From Anaerolineae bacterium (GTDB taxonomy: Bacteria; Chloroflexota; Anaerolineae; Anaerolineales; Villigracilaceae), in the NCBI GenBank assembly GCA_022616105.1, contig JAKEFL010000042.1:1-63112 (forward strand): DNA of 63,112 nt, written 5' to 3'. Shown piece by piece: positions 13,050 to 25,002 of this stretch (positions are counted from its first letter, which is position 1; each line of letters opens with the position of its first letter). Both the position numbers and the translations under genes were made by a program. The notes below the pieces were generated by a model, which was given only the letters and a program-made list of their open reading frames with translations, searched no databases and had not been told where the DNA came from.

Positions 13050-13277
13050 GTGGATTATGGTCCTCCCATTGGAAAGATATATATCTATTCACCAGAGGAT
13101 CTCATTCTTTATAAGCTCATGTACTTTGGACTTAGCCAGCAATCCAAACATTCTCGAGATGTCGCCGCGATTCTCAAATCAAAGAAAAACGAGCTTGACA
13201 TGGGCTATATCGAGCAATGGGCATCTCGATTAGAATTGAGTTCGCTTTGGAAAGAAATGCCTGACAACGTTTCTTGA
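13050..13277 (+). pseudogene. C-terminal fragment of a nucleotidyltransferase-like (TA-associated) gene
   Basis: SPEDLILYKL...RDVAAIL...LDMGYIEQWA.RL. Confidence 0.5.
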
Positions 13278-13545
13278 GATCCAGTAAGATACATAACGAA
13301 TGACGAACTTCAAAAAGTGGTATGAATGCCGTACTCGGAAATCAATTTTCGACCCAATAGAGGAGGTTGTAGGAACTGATTAGGTATGCCAAAAGTATGC
13401 CAATCACGTTAGCAGATGTAGGACAGATTGGACAAGATGTAATTTAGAGCCTAAAAAACCGCCAAAATATAGGAAAAAAAGGACAGAAAAGACAATAAAT
13501 ACAGGTTGGACTCAGAGTAAAACAAAAAATCTCATCCTAAGCTTT

Positions 13546-13588
13546 CTTTTAAGCCATTGGTTCAGGGTTCGAATCCCTGCGCGCTCAC
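13546..13588 (+). tRNA. tRNA-Lys(UUU) 3'-half fragment (att site), not a full tRNA
   Basis: CTTTTAA anticodon loop, T-arm CAGGG-TTCGAAT-CCCTG, acceptor 3' strand; no D-arm or 5' strand upstream. Confidence 0.8.
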
Positions 13589-13650
13589 TGATTTGGTTCA
13601 GCGCCTCCTCAGGGGAGATAATATTCGAAACCCTGCGCGCTCACAAAAAG

Positions 13651-13677
13651 AATCCTCATTGTGGAGGATTTTTGTTT
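13651..13677 (+). terminator. Intrinsic terminator after tRNA fragments
   Basis: AATCCTC-loop-GAGGATT followed by TTTGTTT. Confidence 0.65.
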
Positions 13678-13821
13678 GCCATCCTCTAATAAACTTTTTG
13701 CGAAAGTCCTTTCGCCACAGACTGCGCAAGCGCACAGAGAAAATGAGTTTTTCTCAAAGGTCTCAGTGGGCTCTGTGGCTAAGCAATGGCTTACTTATAA
13801 AAGAAGTCTGATTAAACAATA

Positions 13822-13854
13822 AAGTGAATGTCGATGGTGAATCGACATTCACTT
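13822..13854. repeat. Perfect 14-bp inverted repeat upstream of the response regulator
   Basis: AAGTGAATGTCGAT-GGTGA-ATCGACATTCACTT. Confidence 0.8.
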
Positions 13855-14049
13855 CAAAATAACTCCTTCCCCCTTTGCATCCCGCTTCCGAGCTTACGAA
13901 TAAATTCTTATATCATTGTATATTTGCTGGCATCGTTACTCAAGAGGCATTTGATTTTTCCACGTAGACATTTGTACTGATTTTTTGGAAAAGCCTTGAA
14001 ATAATATGTAATTTTTGCTAATCTTGAATTGTCTGGATGAGGAGGCGAA

Positions 14050-14736
14050 ATGGAAAATAAAATTCGCGTGACGATCCTGGATGACCATCAAAGTATTGTG
14101 GATGGATATCTATTCCGTTTGAGCAAAGTCCTCCAGATTGAAGTGATAGACACACTGAAGCATGGCGAAGATCTTGAGCCTGCGCTGAAGAAACAGGTCC
14201 CCGATGTGCTGCTTCTTGATGTGTATGTACCTGTATCAGCAGAAAACCAGAATCCCTACCCAATCCTTCAAATTATCCCTGATCTGCTCCAGCGCTATCC
14301 CGATCTTGTTATTCTGGTGATCAGCATGCATGCGGAGCGCGGCATCATCCGCGCAGTGATGGAGAGTGGCGCCAGTGGCTATATTCTCAAAGATGACCAG
14401 AAAACGATATTGGATTTGGGAAATGTGATTCTCTCAATTGCCAGTGGGGGAATCTACCTCAGCGAAAAGGCACATACGGTATATATGAAGAATCGCAATG
14501 CTGCAAGCGAGGAGCCTTTAACCGGCCGGCAGATGAAGGTGCTTTCATTATGTGCTGCATACCCGGACCATTCGACCAGTGAACTGGCGCGTGAGATGAA
14601 CGTGGCAAATTCAACGGTCCGCAACCTGCTCTCGGAAATGTATCTAAGGCTGGGGGTGCACAGCCGCGCAGCGGCTATTGCGAAGGCGCGTCAGTTGGGG
14701 TTGATCGCCCCGGATTCACCCCCATTGTCAATATAG
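14050..14736 (+). CDS. NarL/LuxR-family response regulator (ComA-like)
   Basis: ILDDH, VLLLDV, SMH, GASGYILKD receiver; C-terminal LT.RQ..VL...LAREMNVANSTVRN HTH; RBS AGGAGG. Confidence 0.9.
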   Translation: MENKIRVTILDDHQSIVDGYLFRLSKVLQIEVIDTLKHGEDLEPALKKQVPDVLLLDVYVPVSAENQNPYPILQIIPDLLQRYPDLVILVISMHAERGIIRAVMESGASGYILKDDQKTILDLGNVILSIASGGIYLSEKAHTVYMKNRNAASEEPLTGRQMKVLSLCAAYPDHSTSELAREMNVANSTVRNLLSEMYLRLGVHSRAAAIAKARQLGLIAPDSPPLSI

Positions 14737-14737
14737 T

Positions 14738-15670
14738 CTAAAGGGAAAGTCCCAGCGTGTCGAAGAGTCTATGCACGGGGGCAATGACGGCTTCGATAAC
14801 GGAATCAACTGCCCCTTTGTTTGGAAGCGGGGTTTTATCCAGAATATTTTGCGCGGCTCGATGCCTGCGAAGAAGTTGATCCACACAATAACTGACCGCA
14901 CCGCATCGTATCAAAATTTCCTGGGCTTCTCGTAAAGCATCTTCAGCAGATACCTTTTGATACAACTCCATAAATCTTTCGCGGTCCGGGTGCTCTACGG
15001 TTTGCGCGAAAAGGATCGGCAGAGGCTTTCGTCCTTGCAGCCAATCGGGGTTGGCGGGCATAGCCATCGTATCATTCAGGTCATCGTGGATCTGGATCAT
15101 CTCACCATACAGTTCTCCGAGTTTTCGTATTTCATTCGCTACATCATCTGTCGCTTCGCCAAATAATGCCCCGAGGTGAAACGCGCACCCATAGAACGGT
15201 GCGCTTTTATTTTCCACAACCTGCCAGTAGGATTTTTCATCAGATGGATTTTGGATATCCAACTCCTGACCAAACGCGGTGATGGACATCAGTTGACTCA
15301 GGCTTTTCACCGCCTCATGTCTGACCTTGGTGCTGGCTCTGTTCCCGAGGAGTGCCTCCACACCCGCAGCCTGGAAAGCGACCGCGAAGTTCGCAGCTCT
15401 GCCACTGCCAATGCGGTGATATTCCCCGCGCGGGTCATCATCCAGCATATCATCCACGAGGATGATGCTGATCTGCGCGCAGGCAAGCGCGGCGGAGGCG
15501 GGAATAGCCTTTTCAGGAGGTTCACCAAGAGCCTGGCAGGCGATGACCGGCAGTTCCCAATCGCGCGGGCGCGTGCACGCAGCGCGTCGTAGGATATTCC
15601 CCATCTCGTGCCACGAGTCAAAAACCGGAAAGGTTATAAGATAATCGACGGTTGATTGATATATATCCAT
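14738..15670 (-). CDS. Isoprenyl-diphosphate-synthase-fold protein, putative ComQ-like peptide Trp prenyltransferase
   Basis: DDMLD and DDLND Asp-rich motifs, GQELD, NKS; lacks GKRxRP and post-FARM RRG; directly downstream of a Trp-tailed peptide ORF. Confidence 0.75.
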   Translation of the reverse strand: MDIYQSTVDYLITFPVFDSWHEMGNILRRAACTRPRDWELPVIACQALGEPPEKAIPASAALACAQISIILVDDMLDDDPRGEYHRIGSGRAANFAVAFQAAGVEALLGNRASTKVRHEAVKSLSQLMSITAFGQELDIQNPSDEKSYWQVVENKSAPFYGCAFHLGALFGEATDDVANEIRKLGELYGEMIQIHDDLNDTMAMPANPDWLQGRKPLPILFAQTVEHPDRERFMELYQKVSAEDALREAQEILIRCGAVSYCVDQLLRRHRAAQNILDKTPLPNKGAVDSVIEAVIAPVHRLFDTLGLSL

Positions 15671-15685
15671 AACTACTCCAATTCA

Positions 15686-15750
15686 GACTGGTCGGGAATT
15701 TTCCCGACCAGTCCATTATTATTGTAATTATGCTGCGCCTGGGGCAGCAT
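15686..15750 (-). terminator. Two hairpins between peptide gene and prenyltransferase
   Basis: GACTGGTCGGGAA-TT-TTCCCGACCAGTC (15686-15713) and ATGCTGC-N7-GCAGCAT (15730-15750). Confidence 0.55.
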
Positions 15751-15761
15751 TTTGATTCTAC

Positions 15762-15908
15762 TCACCAGTCTTGCCAGCCCAGGTTGCTCATCAGAGCATT
15801 AGTTTGCTTGCGGTTGATCCGGGTGATTTTGGCAAGAGCCTCCTGATATGGTCCTTGAAGTTGGGAGGTAGAAGAAATTGAGGCATAGAAACCTTTCATT
15901 GTGTTCAT
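15762..15908 (-). CDS. Unannotated 48-aa ComX-like pheromone precursor MNTMKGFYASISSTSQLQGPYQEALAKITRINRKQTNALMSNLGWQDW
   Basis: Translated by hand; RBS AAGGAG 8 nt upstream; Trp at -4 and -1; lies between prenyltransferase and kinase. Confidence 0.8.
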   Translation of the reverse strand: MNTMKGFYASISSTSQLQGPYQEALAKITRINRKQTNALMSNLGWQDW

Positions 15909-16013
15909 CAGATTTGCTCCTTTTCATTATTGGGTTTTGTTCATTACGTATCTTGAATTGATATTATGGGTTTTCTTTCTTACCACCTCCTTGAATAGTT
16001 GATGAGTTAATGT

Positions 16014-18323
16014 ATGGTCGCGACTGGCAGCATCGAAAATTTGTCAAGTAAAATGAACCTGCGGAGAAACTCATTCTGGTCGGTTATTGAGAATGTATTG
16101 CCATGGTTTATCCTGGCCATCATGCTCTTTTACACATATGCCAAGTTCTTTGGGCATCCGTATGGTTTTCGCTGGCGTTCATCAACGGGCGTAATCGTAC
16201 ATGTGTTTGATGAGCAATCAGAGCCAACGCTGCAGGAGGGTGATCAAATCATTCAGATTGGTCCTTTGCTCTGGGATGAGTTTCGAGCCGACTTGCGAAA
16301 GACGTTCTTTGAGGGGGCCAAGCCCGGCGATGTTGTTCCAATCATCGTTGAGCGTGATGGCGATCTCGTGAATGTTTCCTGGGCCTATCCAGGATTTACC
16401 CGCAGGGAGTTTCTGGAGCAGTTTTATAGTGAATGGTTTATTGCATATTTATTCTGGCTGGCAGGCTTGCTGACCATTCTCCTCGTCCGCCCTAAAGATG
16501 ATCGTCGGCTGTTAATGGCGCTCTTCAATTTTCTAACCGCCATCTGGTTAATCGCTGGAAGCGGTGTTTCTGCATTTCACATTTGGAATAGCGCCTTGGT
16601 GCTACGCATGGCTATCTTACTGTGCGTGCCAGTTTATCTGCATCTGCACTGGGTATTTCCACAGCCTTTGGGTAAGATACCTGACAAAGTTATCTGGGCT
16701 GTTTACACGGTCACACTGTTTCTGGTTATCGCGCAATGGTTTCAACTTTTACCTAATAGTTTATATCTTTTGGGATTTATGGTTGCACTTGGGGGAAGTT
16801 TTATTCTGCTTCTTATTCATATTGTGCGTCAGCCCTTAGCACGACGTGATCTGCGATTTCTTTTTGTAGCAGTATTGTTAGCAATGGCTCTGGCAGTGAT
16901 ATGGCAAATCATCTATAGTCTTAATAAGTTGCCCTTGTGGTTTGGTAGTGGGGGATTGGTAGGCCTGCCGCTTCTTCCTCTTGCATACCTTTACTCTGCT
17001 TTCCGTCGTCGTTTAGGCGATTTGGAGCTACGTGTTAATCGCTTTTTCTCCCTTTACCTTTTTGTGATTTTGCTTGGCATTGTTGGGCTTCCTCTAATTG
17101 TTTTGCTTGAACAGATTATTCAAATTTCTGGCGAAGTTTTGACAATTAGTCTGATATCCGCTGTATTCACAGCCGCGGCGTTCATCGGGGGATATCCGGC
17201 TTTTGAGAATTTTGTTGAACGTCGCATTTTCGGCATCCCGCTGCCCTCCAAACACCTGTTGGAAATTTACTCAAATCGCATCACAACAAGCAATTCATTA
17301 TCAGAACTGGTTCGAGTCATTGAGGATGAGATCATTCCAAGTCTTCTGATCCGCCAGTTTATCTTTCTCCAATCTGATCATGGGTCGTTAAAGGTGCTTT
17401 CCAAAACAGGAGTGGACGAGGAGCAAATCCCCAAAGCGCAGGATGTACCCGACTTAATGACTCAAACCAATGTTTATCTTACCCCCGATCCCTTGAGTAA
17501 GGACTGGCCCTATTCATGGATTCGTCTCATTCTTCCTCTCAAGCTTGGCGCGGAGACGATTGGCTTTTGGCTCTTCGGGCGCCGTGACCCGGATGATATA
17601 TATTCCCAGTTGGAGATCCCAATAATAAAATCCCTGGCAAATCAGACTGCCGTCGCCTTAAGCAATATTCTGCAGACGGAACGTCTCAAGGCAATGTATG
17701 AGGCGAATATCGACCGCGATGAACAGGAAAGACTGCGTCTTTCGCGTGACCTGCATGACAGTATCCTGAACCAGATCGCAACCTTGCTAATGAGCACCGA
17801 TGCACCGGTATTTTCACCATCATTCCAAAAAGGATTTGAGGTCCTTACCGAAAGGTTAAGGGAGATCGTCAGCGATTTAAGATCGCCCATGCTGGATATG
17901 GGCTTGAAGCTGGCTTTTGAAGATATCGCGGACAAACTGACAGAAAGAAATCAGGATACAGTGAAGATCCTGGCCGATATTCAGGCGGATGGCGAATGCA
18001 GGTATCCTAAGAAAGTGGAGAGTCATTTGTATCGCATCATGCAGGAGGCATGTGAGAATACTTTGAAACATGCTCATGCAAAGACAATGAAGATCACTGT
18101 AAGGCTCTACCGTGAAAAAACGGAACTTCAAATTGAAGATGATGGGATTGGTTTCGATTCAGGAGCCAGCCCGAAACTGGACGATATGCTTGTAGGAAAG
18201 CATTTTGGTCTGGCAGGGATACATGAGCGGGCAAGCTTGATCGGCGCGGAAGTCCATATCCATTCAATGCCGGGGCAGGGCACGCGAATACAGGTGATAT
18301 GGGAGTCTAAGGATAATATTTGA
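16014..18323 (+). CDS. ComP-like membrane sensor histidine kinase (TM, PDZ-like, multi-TM, GAF-like, HisKA_3, HATPase)
   Basis: LQEGDQIIQIG...PGDVVPIIVERDG PDZ-like loop; many TM helices; RLSRDLHDS H-box; QEACENTLKHA, DDGIGF, HFGLAGIHERA. Confidence 0.9.
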   Translation: MVATGSIENLSSKMNLRRNSFWSVIENVLPWFILAIMLFYTYAKFFGHPYGFRWRSSTGVIVHVFDEQSEPTLQEGDQIIQIGPLLWDEFRADLRKTFFEGAKPGDVVPIIVERDGDLVNVSWAYPGFTRREFLEQFYSEWFIAYLFWLAGLLTILLVRPKDDRRLLMALFNFLTAIWLIAGSGVSAFHIWNSALVLRMAILLCVPVYLHLHWVFPQPLGKIPDKVIWAVYTVTLFLVIAQWFQLLPNSLYLLGFMVALGGSFILLLIHIVRQPLARRDLRFLFVAVLLAMALAVIWQIIYSLNKLPLWFGSGGLVGLPLLPLAYLYSAFRRRLGDLELRVNRFFSLYLFVILLGIVGLPLIVLLEQIIQISGEVLTISLISAVFTAAAFIGGYPAFENFVERRIFGIPLPSKHLLEIYSNRITTSNSLSELVRVIEDEIIPSLLIRQFIFLQSDHGSLKVLSKTGVDEEQIPKAQDVPDLMTQTNVYLTPDPLSKDWPYSWIRLILPLKLGAETIGFWLFGRRDPDDIYSQLEIPIIKSLANQTAVALSNILQTERLKAMYEANIDRDEQERLRLSRDLHDSILNQIATLLMSTDAPVFSPSFQKGFEVLTERLREIVSDLRSPMLDMGLKLAFEDIADKLTERNQDTVKILADIQADGECRYPKKVESHLYRIMQEACENTLKHAHAKTMKITVRLYREKTELQIEDDGIGFDSGASPKLDDMLVGKHFGLAGIHERASLIGAEVHIHSMPGQGTRIQVIWESKDNI

Positions 18324-18459
18324 TTGTTAAGGTTCTGAATTCAAGAAAATGATTGAGTAAATTGTTTTGCGCATCTAGTTTAAATAGAATTCGTTTACAA
18401 TCCATCAGGAATCACTTGAATTTATTTAAGTGTTGCTTATTTCTTTGACAGGATAAGGT

Positions 18460-19587
18460 ATGACAGAGTTCGGAAGACAACTTCGTAAATTCCGGCAACA
18501 GTGCAATGATCCGCTAAGTCCACATGGAAAACTTACCCAGGAGAAGTTTGGTGAACTTCTAGGCGAAGCGCTAGGGATCAGATATAGCGGTGCAGCAGTC
18601 AGTGATTGGGAACGCGGGGTAAGTAAAATCCATGCAGATCAACGGCAAGTGCTAATTAGTATTCTTAAAGTGTTAGCTCAGCGGGGTGGGATCAAGACAG
18701 TAATGGAAGCCAATCAGTTGTTGGAGGCTGGAAATTACCGCGCCCTTAATACAAAAGAGGTGCAGCAAATCTTTCCAAATGTTTCAAATGATTTGAATAT
18801 TAAACATTCCATTCCCAAACAAAAAATTTCCAAATCTTTTGTCCCCTTCCTTCTGGCCGACCTTTTCCATATGTCCGAGGATGAGCTGCAGGGGTTGCTT
18901 GCAAAGGCTGAAAAAGGACCGCCTCCGGCCTGGCCGCGCATTCTGGCAGCTTTCATGCGAAAAGCATTTGACCACTTGTCGTTTTCCACCGTCATTTGGA
19001 TTTGGCTCTGGCTGATTGCCTGGTGGCTGGTCACACCTTCCTGGCGCAGGTTGTTTGAGAATCGAGATGTGGCTTTAATTGCTATTGGAATGTATGTTGG
19101 CGGGTCATTAGGAATTCCCCTACTTATTGGATTGCTTGTCAACACCAAAGATAATGATTACTGGAAAGGACAAACCGAGGCGAACTCGTTTCTGGTACGT
19201 CTTTATACCTATCAAGGTGCAGGCATTGGATTTAACCTGGGTTATTTTCTTATATTTCCTCTGAGTCTGGCACGTCATTACTTGAATTTGGAGTCAGCAG
19301 CGTGGGTTACTATCCTGGTGGCTACATTAGGATTGATCCTGGGAAATATGTCTGCGCGCGTGGTTCCATACAACCTGTGGGTTGCATACGGACGATTAAG
19401 ATTCTCTGATGGTGCGATATTCTTCGTAGTGGCACTGCTCGGGCCCATGTGGGGATTATTTTTTCTTGAGTATTACTCTATCTTCCAAAGTCCCGTATGG
19501 GGAACATTGGTGATTCTGTTGGCAGTTACGTTGGCTGCGATGATCACTACGCGACAATCCAACAAGAAACTTTATACAGAACAATAA
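18460..19587 (+). CDS. XRE-type HTH protein with C-terminal multi-pass membrane domain
   Basis: FGRQLRKFR...LTQEKFGELL...AAVSDWERG; about six hydrophobic segments. Confidence 0.75.
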   Translation: MTEFGRQLRKFRQQCNDPLSPHGKLTQEKFGELLGEALGIRYSGAAVSDWERGVSKIHADQRQVLISILKVLAQRGGIKTVMEANQLLEAGNYRALNTKEVQQIFPNVSNDLNIKHSIPKQKISKSFVPFLLADLFHMSEDELQGLLAKAEKGPPPAWPRILAAFMRKAFDHLSFSTVIWIWLWLIAWWLVTPSWRRLFENRDVALIAIGMYVGGSLGIPLLIGLLVNTKDNDYWKGQTEANSFLVRLYTYQGAGIGFNLGYFLIFPLSLARHYLNLESAAWVTILVATLGLILGNMSARVVPYNLWVAYGRLRFSDGAIFFVVALLGPMWGLFFLEYYSIFQSPVWGTLVILLAVTLAAMITTRQSNKKLYTEQ

Positions 19588-19672
19588 GAGTTAAGTTAAT
19601 GGCGCGTTGAATATTTTAAGCCTCCCGCCAACTTCATAAATGAACATGCGTGCTATAATCCGTTTTGTCCCA

Positions 19673-19759
19673 TAGTCGCCAGTCGAATAGTCTCGTAGTC
19701 GGCTGAGAGAGTTCCACAAAGCGACTATCTGACCACTGGACTATCGGACTACAAGACTA
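19673..19759. repeat. Inverted 8-nt-period TAGTC/GACTA arrays (empty element)
   Basis: (T/C)AGTC at 19673, 19680, 19688, 19696; GAC(T/C)A at 19723, 19731, 19739, 19747, 19755. Confidence 0.75.
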
Positions 19760-19761
19760 CG

Positions 19762-22700
19762 ATGACCTTTGCCCACCTCCACGTTCACACGGAATACTCT
19801 TTGCTCGATGGCTTCTCGAATATCAAGAAGCTCGTGCGGCGCGTGAAGGAATTGGAAATGCCCGCCGTGGCAATTACCGACCATGGCACGATGTTTGGGG
19901 TGATTGACTTTTACAAAGCGGCTACAACCGAAGGAATCAAGCCGATCATCGGAGTCGAAGCCTATCTTTCCGCACGTGGGATGACAGACCGCGACTCGAA
20001 ACTTGACCGTACATCCTCTCATTTGCTATTACTTGCAGAAAACGAGACCGGCTACAAGAACCTGCTCAAGATTTCTTCCGCTGCACAACTTGAAGGCTTC
20101 TATTATTATCCCCGCATTGATCATGACTTTTTAGCGGCTCACTCCGAAGGGATCATCTGTACTTCTGGATGTATGTCTGCTGAAATTCCGCGCTTTTTGT
20201 TGGATGACAAACCGGAAGAAGCAGTCCAGCGCATGAACTGGTATTACGATGTCTTTGGCAAAGACCGTTTCTTTGTTGAACTCCAGCAGCACAATATTAA
20301 AGAGATCACGGACTTAAATCGTAAACTGGTCGAGATGGGGGCGCGTTACTCAGCAAAATACGTAGCAACGAACGATGTGCACTACATTAACCAGGACGAC
20401 TGGCGCTTGCAGGATATTCTGCTCGCCATCCAAACGCAGACGATCCTCACCGACCCCGACCGCATGCGCATGACAGACGACTCATATTACCTCCGCACGC
20501 CAGCGGAAATGAGTCAACTTTTTACGGAAGTCCCTGAAACATTGAGCAACACCTTGCTTATTGCTGAACGCTGCAATGTGGACTTATCGTTCAAGGGCTA
20601 TCACCTGCCTGATTTCCCTGTCCCTGAGGGATTCACAACCGAAACATACCTCCGTTATCTGTGTGAAGAAGGGGCGAGAAAACGCTATGGGGATCGCGCG
20701 GCCAGTGAAGAAGTCCAGGAAAGAATCGATTATGAGTTGGGCGTGGTCCACAAAATGGGATTCGACGCGTACTTCCTGATCGTATGGGACTTATGTCGTT
20801 ATGCCCGCGAGAATGAGATCTGGTATAACGCGCGCGGTTCAGCCGCGGGTTCAATCGTCGCGTATGTGCTGGAGATCACGATTGTTGATCCGATCCAGCA
20901 CGATCTGTTGTTCGAACGATTCCTGAACCCGGGCCGTATCTCTATGCCCGATATTGACCTTGATTTCCGCGATGACCGCCGCGCCGAAATGCTTGAGTAT
21001 TGCACGCGAAAATACGCAAGTGACAAGGTCGCACAGATTATTACATTTGGCACGATGGGAACGAAAGCGGCCCTGCGCGACGTAGGACGCGTAATGGATA
21101 TCCCATTGCCTGAGGTAGACCGCGTTGCAAAGCTGGTGCCGTTTGTTTCAGGCCGCACAACCACCATGCAGGACGCGCTCGAAGTCCCTGAGTTTAAAAA
21201 GATTTACAACGAAGAATCGCATTTGCGCGAGCTGATCGATATTGCCACCAAAATGGAAGGCACAGTTCGCAATGCAGGGACACATGCCGCGGGCGTGGTG
21301 ATCTCGGACAAGCCGTTGCTTGAATATCTGCCTTTGCATCGCCCCACATCGAATTCAGAAGAGACACCCATCAAAACTGTGACACAGTTCGAAATGGGCA
21401 TTCTCGATTCGCTTGGCATGTTGAAAGTGGATTTCCTTGGCCTCATCACATTGACTGTGATGGCAAAAGCCTGTGAATTGATCGAGAAACGGCACGGCAT
21501 TAAATATGATTTAAGCAATATTCCATTGGATGATCCGAAATCATTTGAATTAATGGGCAACGGGCAGACGGCAGGCGTCTTCCAGGTGGAAGGTGGCGGC
21601 ATGACGCGCTATCTCGTGCAAATGAAGCCCAAGTCGCTGGATAATATCATCGCCATGGTAGCACTCTATCGCCCGGGACCGATGGCTTTCATTCCGGATT
21701 ACATTGCGCGTATGCATGGTGAAGCGGATGTGGAGTTTCGCCATCCGGCATTGGAATCTATCTTCCAGGATACGTTTGGAATTCCTGTATATCAAGAGCA
21801 GTTGATGCGCGCCGCAGTCGAACTCGCTGGATATACCCCTTCAGAATCAGATGAACTTCGCAAGGCAATTTCGAAGAAGAACAAAAAAGATATTGATAAG
21901 CATCGCGAGAAATTCGTGAAAGGGGCTGTAAAGCAAGGCATGGAGAAGGCAACTGCAGAATCGATCTATAGCGACTGGGAGGAGTTCGCGCGATATGGAT
22001 TTAATAAGTGTTTGCCTGGGGATGTGGAGATATTGGATGCTTCAACAGGACTCCTCATAAAAATTGAAGATTTGTATTACGGCCTAAAACAAATCACAAC
22101 CACGCTTTCATGTGATATTCCTACTTTGAAGTTGAAAAATCAGCCAATCACTCAGGTAATAGACAATGGCATCAAGCCCGTTTTCCGACTCACAACAGCA
22201 TCTGGGCGTGTAATCGAAGCAACAGGTAATCATCCATTCTACACTTATCATGGATGGCGCCAGTTAGATGAATTAGAGTCTGATGATTTTATTGCAGTTC
22301 CGAGAGTTATCCGTGTTGAAGGGCAGAGTGAATGGCCTGAGAATGAGGTCATTGCACTGGGGCATTTGTTAGCAGAAGGAAACCTATGCCACCCACATTC
22401 TGTATACTTTTATAGCCAGGATATTGACCAAGTTAATGACTTCGTTCAAGCTGCCAATTCTTTTGAAAATGTGAAATGCACAATCGCTACTCATAAAAGC
22501 ACATACTCCATTTATGCTGCGCGCGCAGATAAAAGATTCCCGCCAAGAATTTTCACCTGGTCGGGTGAACTTGGTTTGCTTGGCAAGAATGCCCGCACTA
22601 AGGAAATCCCTGCTTCGGTATTCGAATTGAACAATCGTCAAATCGGGTTAATGATCAGCCGCATGTGGGAAGGTGATGGCCATATCGATATGCGCGGGCA

Positions 22701-25002
22701 CAGTTTATATTATGCCACCGCGTCACATCGGACGGCGAGTCAACTTCAGCACTTATTATTGCGTTTCGGCATTATTGGCCGCGTCCGTACAGTGGAATTT
22801 CCTTATAAGGAAGGACGCATTGGATATCAAGTCTTTATTACGGGCCACGAGAACTTCGTGAGATTTGCGGAGCACATTGGTTGTTACTTCCTCAGCAAAA
22901 AACGCAGATCTATTATCGAGTATCTCGCTTCTTATATTCCGCCTGAAAAGATTGGCACAAAAGATATTGTTCCAGCTAGTGTCAAGGAATATATTCGTGC
23001 CGCGAAGGATCAATCAGGTCTAACGTGGACAAACCTCTCCCAAATTACGGGTGTGGCGCCTCGCGAGTTCCATCCAACCAATTCGGCTGGCAAGATCGGA
23101 TTCCGACGCAATACATTACAAAGATTAGGCAATTATTTCGATGATCCCAATATCAAACGCTATGCTGAAAGTGACCTTTATTGGGATCGTATTGCCTATA
23201 TTGAATACGTTGGGGAAAAACAAACTTACGATCTTGAAATTGCTGACACACATAACTTTATTGCAAACAATATTCTGGTTCACAACAGTCATGCCGCCGA
23301 CTATGGCGTGATCGCTGTCCAAACAGCGTATCTCAAATCACATTATCCTGCCGAATATATGACTGCATTGCTCTCCGCTTCTGCGGGCATCACGGAAAAA
23401 GTTGCGTTCTACATCTCCGACGCGCGCAGCATGGGTGTGCATGTTCTGCCAATTGAGATCAACGCCTCTGGCTGGGACTTTGCGATTGAAGATGTAGAAG
23501 ATAAGGCACATATTCGCTTTGGATTTGGGGCAGTAAAGAATGTAGGTCAGGGCGCGGTGGAATTAATCCTCGAAGAACGCGATCAAAATGGCGTCTTTAA
23601 AAATCTCAATGACTTTGCCCGCCGCGTCGATTTGCGCGCAGTTGGAAAGCGCGCGCTCGAATGTCTGATCAAGGTCGGCGCAATGGATTCGTTCGGTAAC
23701 CGTGCCGCACTGCTTGCCTCGCTCGACCGCGTTGTATCCATCAGCAGCAATCATTTCCGCGCGGCGGAGGCGGGACAGATGAGTCTCTTCGGCGCGGCGA
23801 CTGGTGTGATAGATGAGATCACTCTTCCAGATGTCAACAATGTGGATAAACGCGAGATGCTCAACTGGGAGCGTGAGCTGATAGGTCTTTACATCTCAGA
23901 CCATCCACTTACGCCGTATCAAAAAACTTTTGCGCAGATCGTCAGTTATTTTTCGGGTCAACTCGGCGAAGCGCAGCATGAAGAGAAAGTCCGTTTGGCG
24001 GGTCTCATCACCGCCGTTCGTCCGTATATGACCAAGACCAACAAGCCGATGGGTTTCGTCACACTCGAAGATATCCAGGGCAATATCGAACTTGTACTGT
24101 TCCCGCGCACATGGGAGAAAACGCGCGTGCAGCTCACAGTCGGTCAGATCGTGATCGTCGAAGGCAAGGTGGATATGAACAGCACTCCACCGAAGGTCCT
24201 TGTGGATACGATTCGGACTGAGATCAAGATTCTTGAATCATTGGACGCTTCGTCTCCGCTCAGCGCGAATGAGCCGCCTCTCACCAAGCCTGCGCCTGCT
24301 CCTGTTCAAAAAGCGACTCCAACGCCCAAACATCCTCCCATCAACACCCCATCGACGCGCGTTCCCGCGCCTCAAATTGCAGAATCCATGCCTGCATACT
24401 CCGCAGGACAGGATGCCATTCCGCCCTACGATGACATTCCACCTCCACCCCCTGATAACTTCCCCGATGGCTGGGATAGTGAATGGCAGCCCTCATTTGA
24501 AAACGCGGAGCTCGCTGCCCGCCCCGAGCCTGTAGGATACACACCGCCGCGTGATTTAGCTGCCCAATCAGTCGAGGAGATAAAAGAGGACACAGCTGAA
24601 TCGACTGCTGATAAACAGGAACAAGTTGAGGCGGTGCATGAAGCGCTGGCAGTCCAGCCGATTGAGTCTCTTCCAAACGAGACTCTTTCCATGCCGCCTT
24701 CGTTATACGTTCCGCTTGCAAAGGAAGAAAAGGACAAGGAACACCGGCCGCAGCAAATCACAGTGACCCTGCGCTCAACGGGTGACAAGGAATGGGATAA
24801 GCGCAGAATAAAATCGATCTATGGCACGCTCATCTCATTCCACGGGCGGGACCGGTTCAGTTTCCAGATCTTTGAGAATGGCTCAGGGCATCTGATCGAT
24901 TTCCCCAACGATACAACGCGCGTCTGCCCCGAAATGCTCGAACGCCTGAAAAAGTTGATGGGGCAGGAGAGCTGGCGCGTGGAAGAAATTACGTTTCAAT
25001 AA
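19762..25002 (+). CDS. dnaE: DNA polymerase III alpha subunit with intein
   Basis: HLHVHTEYSLLDG PHP motif, RGSAAGS, MPDIDLDF, GFNK/SHA, OB fold. Confidence 0.97.
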   Translation: MTFAHLHVHTEYSLLDGFSNIKKLVRRVKELEMPAVAITDHGTMFGVIDFYKAATTEGIKPIIGVEAYLSARGMTDRDSKLDRTSSHLLLLAENETGYKNLLKISSAAQLEGFYYYPRIDHDFLAAHSEGIICTSGCMSAEIPRFLLDDKPEEAVQRMNWYYDVFGKDRFFVELQQHNIKEITDLNRKLVEMGARYSAKYVATNDVHYINQDDWRLQDILLAIQTQTILTDPDRMRMTDDSYYLRTPAEMSQLFTEVPETLSNTLLIAERCNVDLSFKGYHLPDFPVPEGFTTETYLRYLCEEGARKRYGDRAASEEVQERIDYELGVVHKMGFDAYFLIVWDLCRYARENEIWYNARGSAAGSIVAYVLEITIVDPIQHDLLFERFLNPGRISMPDIDLDFRDDRRAEMLEYCTRKYASDKVAQIITFGTMGTKAALRDVGRVMDIPLPEVDRVAKLVPFVSGRTTTMQDALEVPEFKKIYNEESHLRELIDIATKMEGTVRNAGTHAAGVVISDKPLLEYLPLHRPTSNSEETPIKTVTQFEMGILDSLGMLKVDFLGLITLTVMAKACELIEKRHGIKYDLSNIPLDDPKSFELMGNGQTAGVFQVEGGGMTRYLVQMKPKSLDNIIAMVALYRPGPMAFIPDYIARMHGEADVEFRHPALESIFQDTFGIPVYQEQLMRAAVELAGYTPSESDELRKAISKKNKKDIDKHREKFVKGAVKQGMEKATAESIYSDWEEFARYGFNKCLPGDVEILDASTGLLIKIEDLYYGLKQITTTLSCDIPTLKLKNQPITQVIDNGIKPVFRLTTASGRVIEATGNHPFYTYHGWRQLDELESDDFIAVPRVIRVEGQSEWPENEVIALGHLLAEGNLCHPHSVYFYSQDIDQVNDFVQAANSFENVKCTIATHKSTYSIYAARADKRFPPRIFTWSGELGLLGKNARTKEIPASVFELNNRQIGLMISRMWEGDGHIDMRGHSLYYATASHRTASQLQHLLLRFGIIGRVRTVEFPYKEGRIGYQVFITGHENFVRFAEHIGCYFLSKKRRSIIEYLASYIPPEKIGTKDIVPASVKEYIRAAKDQSGLTWTNLSQITGVAPREFHPTNSAGKIGFRRNTLQRLGNYFDDPNIKRYAESDLYWDRIAYIEYVGEKQTYDLEIADTHNFIANNILVHNSHAADYGVIAVQTAYLKSHYPAEYMTALLSASAGITEKVAFYISDARSMGVHVLPIEINASGWDFAIEDVEDKAHIRFGFGAVKNVGQGAVELILEERDQNGVFKNLNDFARRVDLRAVGKRALECLIKVGAMDSFGNRAALLASLDRVVSISSNHFRAAEAGQMSLFGAATGVIDEITLPDVNNVDKREMLNWERELIGLYISDHPLTPYQKTFAQIVSYFSGQLGEAQHEEKVRLAGLITAVRPYMTKTNKPMGFVTLEDIQGNIELVLFPRTWEKTRVQLTVGQIVIVEGKVDMNSTPPKVLVDTIRTEIKILESLDASSPLSANEPPLTKPAPAPVQKATPTPKHPPINTPSTRVPAPQIAESMPAYSAGQDAIPPYDDIPPPPPDNFPDGWDSEWQPSFENAELAARPEPVGYTPPRDLAAQSVEEIKEDTAESTADKQEQVEAVHEALAVQPIESLPNETLSMPPSLYVPLAKEEKDKEHRPQQITVTLRSTGDKEWDKRRIKSIYGTLISFHGRDRFSFQIFENGSGHLIDFPNDTTRVCPEMLERLKKLMGQESWRVEEITFQ
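22009..23286 (+). mobile_element. Intein (426 aa) with LAGLIDADG homing endonuclease
   Basis: GFNK|CLPGD...ATGNHPF...LGHLLAEG...RMWEGDG...TYDLEI..THNFIANNILVHN|SHAADY. Confidence 0.95.

Follow-up and report, generated by a model that had tools for sequence, protein, structure and literature searches.

A conserved five-gene cassette of Anaerolineae with a predicted peptide tryptophan prenyltransferase resembles ComQXPA

Anaerolineae are widespread and mostly uncultured bacteria of sediment and reactor communities, and the literature we searched gave no description of a peptide signaling circuit in this class. We analyzed a stretch of 63,112 nt, hereafter the window, from an uncultured member of the Anaerolineales (Chloroflexota; Anaerolineae bacterium, assembly GCA_022616105.1, contig JAKEFL010000042.1), in which an earlier note made from the DNA letters alone had described four adjacent genes as a rearranged ComQXPA-like locus. 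The four genes, encoding a NarL-type response regulator (A), an isoprenyl-synthase-fold enzyme (Q), a short precursor peptide (x) and a sensor histidine kinase (P), were found at the places and in the orientations described there. That description was incomplete in one respect, as a fifth gene, denoted as H, follows P and had been overlooked. A, P and H are read on the forward strand, and Q and x, which are co-oriented, on the reverse strand (Table 1). The five genes travel together as a conserved unit.

Table 1. Coordinates of the cassette genes and associated features in the window
Feature	Position	Strand	Basis
tRNA-Lys(TTT), 3' part, 43 nt	13546..13588	+	43/43 nt match the intact tRNA-Lys beside the L001 cassette (its positions 31-73)
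Bipartite motif AGRCA-N16-AGRCAKWTGTACTG upstream of A	13945..13980	+	core in 37/44 upstream regions
A, NarL/ComA-type response regulator, 228 aa	14050..14736	+	Response_reg PF00072 and GerE PF00196 above Pfam cut-offs
Q, trans-isoprenyl-synthase-fold enzyme, 310 aa, predicted peptide Trp prenyltransferase	14738..15670	-	PF00348, 67.8 bits (cut-off 27)
Strong hairpin without U-tract between x and Q	15685..15714	-	z -6.0 for the 91-nt region; z < -2 in 52/53 spacers of 30-130 nt
x, precursor peptide, 48 aa, ends LGWQDW; consensus MxxMQxFYxxL...L..LT...WxxW[tail]	15762..15908	-	W45/W48 invariant
AAGGAGGTG (peptide strand) / CACCTCCT (kinase strand), divergent x/P spacer	15984..15991	.	51/63 spacers vs 7.5 expected
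P, sensor histidine kinase, 769 aa: first transmembrane helix (TM1), PDZ-like loop (~48-138), membrane bundle (140-410), GAF (409-556), HisKA_3 (His581), HATPase	16014..18323	+	Pfam, model, alignment
CTTGAA/CTTAAG repeats ahead of H	18415..18440	+	CTTGAA in 22/24 upstream regions vs 1.1 expected; paired form 19/24
H, 375 aa: N-terminal XRE-like helix-turn-helix (HTH) and 5-6 predicted membrane helices	18460..19587	+	HTH_31 E 9e-5, below cut-off

The locus sample was made up of the 80 top-ranking loci among 99 that contain a relative of Q, and the genome samples were drawn from one collection, overlap and are related by kinship, so the counts given here are not independent. Using a fixed rule for x (an open reading frame of 38-90 aa with W-x(1-2)-W near its end, at most 420 nt upstream of Q), a peptide was detected in 76 of the 80 loci, compared with 94 of 2014 control windows (4.7%). 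Among the four loci missed by this rule, L026 carries a frameshifted copy and L044, L060 and L080 have a peptide visible on inspection; searching with an iterated profile detected x in 64/80 loci. A PDZ-membrane-GAF sensor, scored within 2.6 kb, accompanies Q in 71/80 loci and in 55 of the 58 well-flanked loci, defined as those with 1.5 kb on either side of Q. The gene order of the window, which differs from that of comQXPA as the earlier note had said, is repeated in 50/80 loci, and H is present in 32/80. Relatives lacking the small reading frame and the kinase and regulator, which that note had named as grounds for giving up its reading, were thus not what we found.

The cassette is patchily distributed, as it occurs in 11 of 201 genomes of the class and, with a looser cut-off, in 9 of 401 genomes of the phylum, three of these representing other enzyme types. 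In a 41-genome sample of the genus, Q, P and H co-occur in the same seven genomes, with P found also in G608 and G614 and H also in G003 (for H, 7/7 Q-bearing genomes vs 1/34 others). The cassette lies between tRNA-Lys and dnaE, and the distance between these two genes is 0.2-1.6 kb in four of the five cassette-free genus genomes examined, the contig of the fifth having ended too early. Considering that Q, P and H are shared by the same seven genomes and that tRNA-Lys is close to dnaE where the cassette is missing, the cassette is an accessory islet that is gained and lost as a block. Decayed forms were also seen. G608 retains open reading frames for P and A, with Q lost by deletion and x decayed (L110, G608:C21, 345-3729), and in G614, Q is frameshifted and P contains a stop (L114, G614:C53). 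The G608 locus is possibly that of a signal-null listener.

To compare the peptides, 55 rows were aligned (the window and 54 of the 64 profile hits, with frameshifted, duplicate, mis-started and insertion-bearing peptides omitted). W45 and W48 were present in 55/55 rows, and M4, F7 and L25 were nearly invariant. In the window, x ends in LGWQDW as the earlier note had reported, with Trp at -1 and -4, but this ending is not a trait of the family, whose members are mostly 43-64 aa long and carry 0-16 residues after WxxW; a tail is present in 52 of 62 relatives, nine end at the Trp and one is frameshifted. The tail of the window's x was lost through a 2-nt deletion. An assembly error behind this short form was ruled out, because contigs of three runs (of one study, one run being possibly the source of the window DNA) showed no indel and a second 48-aa form exists (P0130). 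The ratio of nonsynonymous to synonymous substitution rates (dN/dS) of x was 0.12 across 21 pairs of seven close sequences, which argues that x is under purifying selection and, together with the frequency of x near Q (76/80 loci vs 94/2014 control windows), that the locus is more than a chance arrangement. None of the 55 peptides matched Pfam families of the NHLP type. The hairpin between x and Q is likely to set a high ratio of peptide to enzyme mRNA. In a single record (P0156), possibly an artefact, the peptide reads through into the enzyme, and a search of longer proteins gave no other fusion.

The alignment of Q contained 80 rows (the window and 79 loci; the frameshifted L032 was omitted), of which 75 full-length rows, five short ones being omitted, were used with five control synthases for the tree and for counts at the binding site of isopentenyl diphosphate (IPP). 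D73/D74/D77, Q193, D196/D197/D200 and D209/W210 were invariant in 80/80 rows, so that both DDxxD motifs and a family-specific D209-W210 pair are conserved, as is K155. The first position of the second motif is Asp in all 80 rows and in 151/151 aligned stretches. GKRxR is the IPP-binding motif of chain-elongating trans-isoprenyl diphosphate synthases (hereafter trans-IDS). In Q it is replaced by PxxWxxP, with GKRxR seen in 0/150 further representatives and a loose form of the pattern in 1/80 rows, and the RRG loop after the first DDxxD is shortened to DxPRG in 66/80 rows; the five control synthases retain both GKRxR and RRG. By these alignments, the motifs with which chain-building synthases bind IPP have disappeared from the Q family. 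The family forms a single clade apart from the control synthases (support 0.91, 75 rows) and comprises 288 clusters at 50% identity (E<=1e-30). The closest named relatives of Q belong to Anaerolinea and Anaerolineales, in agreement with the Chloroflexota origin presumed at first. The most suitable reading of Q is a trans-IDS-like enzyme that prenylates Trp and belongs to a separate branch, its activity being predicted from sequence. Tandem copies of Q with motifs intact in both were observed upstream of the sensor in L059 (5926-7903; copies 76% identical) and L060 (995-2952).

The kinase has the parts ascribed to it in the earlier note, namely a PDZ-like loop, transmembrane helices, a HisKA_3 box and a GAF-like domain. 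Nine hydropathy segments were counted in P, and His581 is present in 39/39 aligned kinases. HATPase_c exceeds its Pfam cut-off, and HisKA_3 (E 4e-4) and GAF (E 0.02) remain below theirs; in the AlphaFold model of P (predicted local distance difference test, pLDDT, 83), residues 409-556 adopt a GAF fold (Z 13.6, root-mean-square deviation 3.3, 146 residues aligned). The loop after TM1 seems PDZ-like by profile: 20 of 39 loops matched Pfam PDZ_2 at E<=0.1 and none above cut-off, the window's own loop having E 0.087, and the loop profile ranked PDZ domains on top in the PDB (best E 2.5e-4). Look-alikes of P in the ESM Atlas are GAF/PDZ clusters. The extracytoplasmic loop is retained in 39/39 aligned kinases, and in A, Asp57 and Lys114 are present in 36/36 regulators. 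The GAF domain had been regarded as an addition relative to ComP. ComP of B. subtilis has about the length of P with a long cytoplasmic linker, which gives grounds for doubting that the GAF is extra. Since the GAF of P itself is below the Pfam cut-off, a GAF could be just as invisible in published ComP domain lists.

In a comparison of ten hand-picked kinases, the output half was found to be exchanged beside x and Q: L067, L068 and L074 (Thermoanaerobaculia/Holophagales) carry PAS-HisKA-HATPase-receiver hybrids, and L059 and L065 multi-GAF kinases. The PDZ-membrane-GAF module thus stays with x and Q across Chloroflexota and Acidobacteriota while output domains vary. The Acidobacteriota version (L067-L075, L077, L078 and L080; Thermoanaerobaculia/Holophagales) has the order x, Q, x', P, mostly with two related peptides and a hybrid kinase output. 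We further compared divergence among 32 loci with all parts, selected by Q similarity. It increased from A (0.44) through Q (0.50), the kinase core (0.52), GAF (0.55) and the membrane bundle (0.59) to PDZ (0.65) and x (0.66). The co-variation that the earlier note had proposed to look for was observed, as the partial correlation of x distance, with A and kinase core controlled, was 0.50 for the membrane bundle, 0.49 for Q, 0.39 for PDZ and 0.05 for GAF. Considering that the sensor module stays beside x and Q though the output changes, and that the divergence of x tracks the bundle and PDZ loop but not the GAF, P is the predicted receptor.

The model of H has a pLDDT of 84; a Foldseek search gave no match for the fold at E<=0.001, and a profile comparison of H with P showed no similarity. 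H is a candidate for a second receptor or a feedback regulator, and the CTTGAA/CTTAAG repeats ahead of it are likely an operator for its HTH domain. Ahead of A, the bipartite motif is the only site scoring >18 in the host genome, with none in shuffles, and it occurs in 7/7 Q-bearing genomes of the genus vs 5/34 others, two of those five with cassette remnants. It is thus a putative binding site of A, likely for autoregulation. The exact motif core is also found distant from the cassette in some genus genomes, so the motif may serve other readers; full bipartite motifs outside the cassette, as possible targets, were seen in L105, L108 and L109 (G619, G608). A scan with consensus promoters gave no call for the promoter of A, and no conserved motif was found ahead of the x gene, unlike ahead of A.

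The divergent spacer between x and P contains AAGGAGGTG 80-100 nt ahead of x, which is present in 47/51 loci where the kinase is divergent vs 3/11 others. In 30/50 loci, though not in the window, ATTATA comes after it (TATAAT when read on the kinase strand), often 7 nt on. AAGGAGGTG is a perfect Shine-Dalgarno-like sequence with no normal start codon in range in the window and the spacers of L001-L066. It could mark either the start of the kinase mRNA, with the anti-Shine-Dalgarno copy first, or a site for ribosomes that begin at ATT or translate a mini-open reading frame.

When the cassette is set beside ComQXPA of Bacillus, four adjacent parts are common to both: a PF00348-fold enzyme, a short Trp peptide, a kinase with many transmembrane segments and HisKA_3/HATPase domains, and a regulator of receiver and GerE domains. 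In both, the peptide is the most variable part and a dedicated exporter is lacking. The likeness of P to ComP is by description (8-10 transmembrane helices with HisKA_3 and HATPase), and that of A to ComA/NarL is at the domain level (a receiver with the phospho-Asp and a GerE HTH). The Bacillus genes are co-directional in the order comQ-X-P-A (PMC4008528), in contrast with the divergent x/P spacer seen here. The ComX precursor has 52-73 aa with its Trp in the last 5-10 residues (PMC4008528); x has 48 aa with Trp at -1 and -4, and its relatives mostly 43-64 aa with tails of 0-16 residues. The hosts also differ, being Chloroflexota and Acidobacteriota here, whereas the 2014 census lists none outside Firmicutes (Dogsa 2014, PMC4008528). 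Moreover, the cassette has a true DDxxD instead of NDxxx, a WxxW peptide that the ComX profile PF05952 does not match, and an extra HTH-membrane gene. The ComQ/X/P/A parts list of the earlier note therefore holds for adjacency and general likeness but not for family membership. Considering that Asp is found in 80/80 rows in place of the NDxxx pseudo-second aspartate-rich motif (pseudo-SARM) and that no peptide matches the ComX profile, Q and x appear to be ComQ/ComX-like and not members of these families, a separation based on motif, profile and published descriptions. L090, which has an ND motif, was set aside as a stand-in for ComQ, since neither a peptide nor a sensor appeared next to it.

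Closer parallels exist for individual parts. ComQ-like enzymes do occur in Chloroflexota, as the earlier note had said; StheQ of Sphaerobacter thermophilus farnesylates the Trp of StheX in vitro (bioRxiv 10.64898/2026.08.29.745113). Like Q and x, this Chloroflexota enzyme of isoprenyl-synthase fold adjoins a short peptide that carries two Trp close to the end. By description, StheQ differs in its NDxxD pseudo-SARM, and stheX in its place downstream of stheQ and in the adjacent Trp residues at its end; the main text of the preprint describes no sensor or regulator. In PalP-PalX-PalQ of Paenibacillus alvei (PMC10853753), a histidine kinase, a precursor and a prenyltransferase with Q-x-x-D..D are combined, and the precursor ends in Trp as does the window's x. 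PalQ prenylates a peptide Trp with a true second DDxxD (D200/D204 and Q197), and Ord1, for which the StheQ preprint cites Q216/D219, takes a free indole as acceptor. Considering D200/D204 of PalQ and Q216/D219 of Ord1, Asp at the second motif is compatible with Trp or indole prenylation. The Pal system differs in the NHLP leader of PalX and in the terminal Trp on which PalQ depends, most relatives of x having tails after WxxW that might be trimmed, and it consists of three genes only, with signaling not shown (PMC10853753). The P domain of ChrPC and Ord1 also belong to this superfamily, as trans-IDS-like enzymes that prenylate Trp or indole; ChrPC occurs as a fusion with a cyclase, and the passages cited here mention no receptor for either (PMC13290415; StheQ preprint). 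A ComP-ComA pair is said to occur in chloroflexi in the discussion of PMC8895600. A full circuit in Chloroflexota or Acidobacteriota was not described in the literature searched, mostly open-access, and Fig. S1 of the StheQ study and Table S1 of the PalQ study may bear on this.

Taken together, the cassette probably functions in the manner of ComQXPA, with a prenylated Trp peptide that is sensed by a kinase as a density signal, and it would do so without ComQ or ComX family membership. The mechanism that we infer for prenylation, export, binding and targets builds on the genes, motifs, linkage and selection observed in the cassette. Q would bind the helical leader of x, ionize geranyl or farnesyl diphosphate at the first DDxxD and alkylate an indole of WxxW, most likely that of W48. 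Leader removal and export would be left to general host machinery, since the cassette encodes none. The lipopeptide would then be bound by P through its PDZ loop and membrane bundle, whereupon His581 would autophosphorylate and Asp57 of A would be phosphorylated, and A would bind the bipartite motif ahead of its own gene in positive feedback. More speculatively, H with its own operator may serve as a second reader in the membrane or as a repressor in a feedback loop. So understood, the cassette offers a signal and a receptor that can be tested together and could be reconstituted in E. coli, as ComQ/ComX has been (PMC4008528). The published rule that enzymes with a second DDxxD are unsuited to prenylate Trp would also be tested by the Q family. 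The family may accept terminal as well as internal Trp, which is relevant to tools for peptide lipidation. A rather unlikely extension is that the loci represent a separate, phylum-crossing pheromone family in which both Trp are prenylated, with a swappable PDZ-membrane-GAF receptor, an HTH-membrane one-component receptor, sequence dialects and signal-null eavesdroppers in uncultured Anaerolineae. The prenylation of both Trp would fit the tandem Q copies in L059/L060 and the two peptides per locus in Thermoanaerobaculia.

Several observations weigh against a prenylated density signal. ComQ requires NDxxx or GDxxx, and DDxx(D) is reported as unsuitable for Trp isoprenylation in Okada 2017 (PMC5331326); the N215D mutant of StheQ lost 98% of its activity (bioRxiv 10.64898/2026.08.29.745113). 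One IPP-site His is retained in 29/75 rows of Q, and the Gln three residues ahead of the second motif is also found in ordinary synthases, so it is not diagnostic. PF05952 matched 0/55 peptides at E<=10, a model that stayed below cut-off even in the B. subtilis control of the genome scan, and in 21 related genomes it gave no match with the control also silent. The sensor is missing within reach in three well-flanked loci (L010, L014 and L040). The decay in G608 is one case, in a genome 64% complete. The co-variation of x with the sensor parts can stem from nothing more than kinship and physical linkage, given that Q and x form one uninterrupted stretch with the 5' part of P. In five genomes, the bipartite pattern with one mismatch gave 19 sites vs 20 for a reversed control, i.e., no regulon beyond chance. 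Lastly, neither an exporter nor a protease gene lies within the cassette. This last point would fit a private or contact signal, in which x is prenylated but kept in the producer membrane or passed by cell contact and P and H read something other than density. Such a signal is also in keeping with a very hydrophobic product, which two invariant Trp and tandem Q copies could make, and with the membrane bundle showing the strongest co-variation with x. We regard it as quite unlikely, because ComX likewise has no known exporter (PMC4008528), and the PDZ loop retained in all aligned kinases is outside the membrane and their most variable part, as expected for an outside ligand.

It is improbable that the cassette makes a lipopeptide effector, of antimicrobial or surface activity, whose synthesis the two-component pair controls upon another cue. 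An accessory and patchy islet would suit an effector, prenylation can increase the antimicrobial activity of peptides (PMC13290415), and the conserved motif stands ahead of the A gene and not of x. However, it is the sensor half rather than the output half that stays with x and Q in two phyla, no transporter or immunity gene is evident, and x divergence tracks the sensor parts. That Q leaves x unmodified and has a small molecule as its product, either a terpenoid or, as with Ord1, a prenylated small aromatic acceptor, with x as an unmodified partner or signal, seems highly improbable. Both DDxxD motifs of Q are intact, chain-building synthases lead its PDB sequence matches, where Ord1 (9v4g) comes at rank 12, and ComQ and StheQ lose activity with Asp at the position in question; on the other hand, Q and x are almost never apart and decay together in G608, WxxW is invariant, and PalQ prenylates a peptide Trp despite a true second motif. 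Finally, it is barely credible that Q is an ordinary polyprenyl diphosphate synthase with incidental neighbors. Relatives of Q bear database names of ordinary synthases, e.g., 'geranylgeranyl pyrophosphate synthase', and Q matches PF00348, but GKRxR and RRG are lost, the host genome (88% complete) encodes two further canonical synthases, and the five genes are gained and lost jointly. At their cut-offs, NCBIfam models matched none of the window's cassette proteins, and those for synthases were far below cut-off for Q.

Regarding the surroundings of the cassette, an Rfam scan of 13200-19800 gave no match, an intact tRNA was not found in the window, nor an intact tRNA-Lys(TTT) in the assembly. 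Besides the 3' part of tRNA-Lys(TTT), a second, degenerate copy lies at 13624-13644. The two pieces resemble an attachment-site remnant of an element inserted leftward and mark the left edge of the cassette; they belong to its context and not to the circuit. Among viral contigs, 101 pattern matches were obtained, with no Q relative among them. L040 (8616-12929) contains x, Q and A without a sensor, followed by an open reading frame that looks like a polyketide synthase, as judged by eye from its start. A different, co-directional cassette was seen in the same family in L096 (G567:C18, 558-4223), with a peptide, a prenyltransferase-like enzyme with a degenerate first motif and a PDZ-membrane sensor. 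To the right of the cassette, dnaE (19762-25002, 1746 aa) has an apparent intein insert, according to a by-eye reading of its translation.

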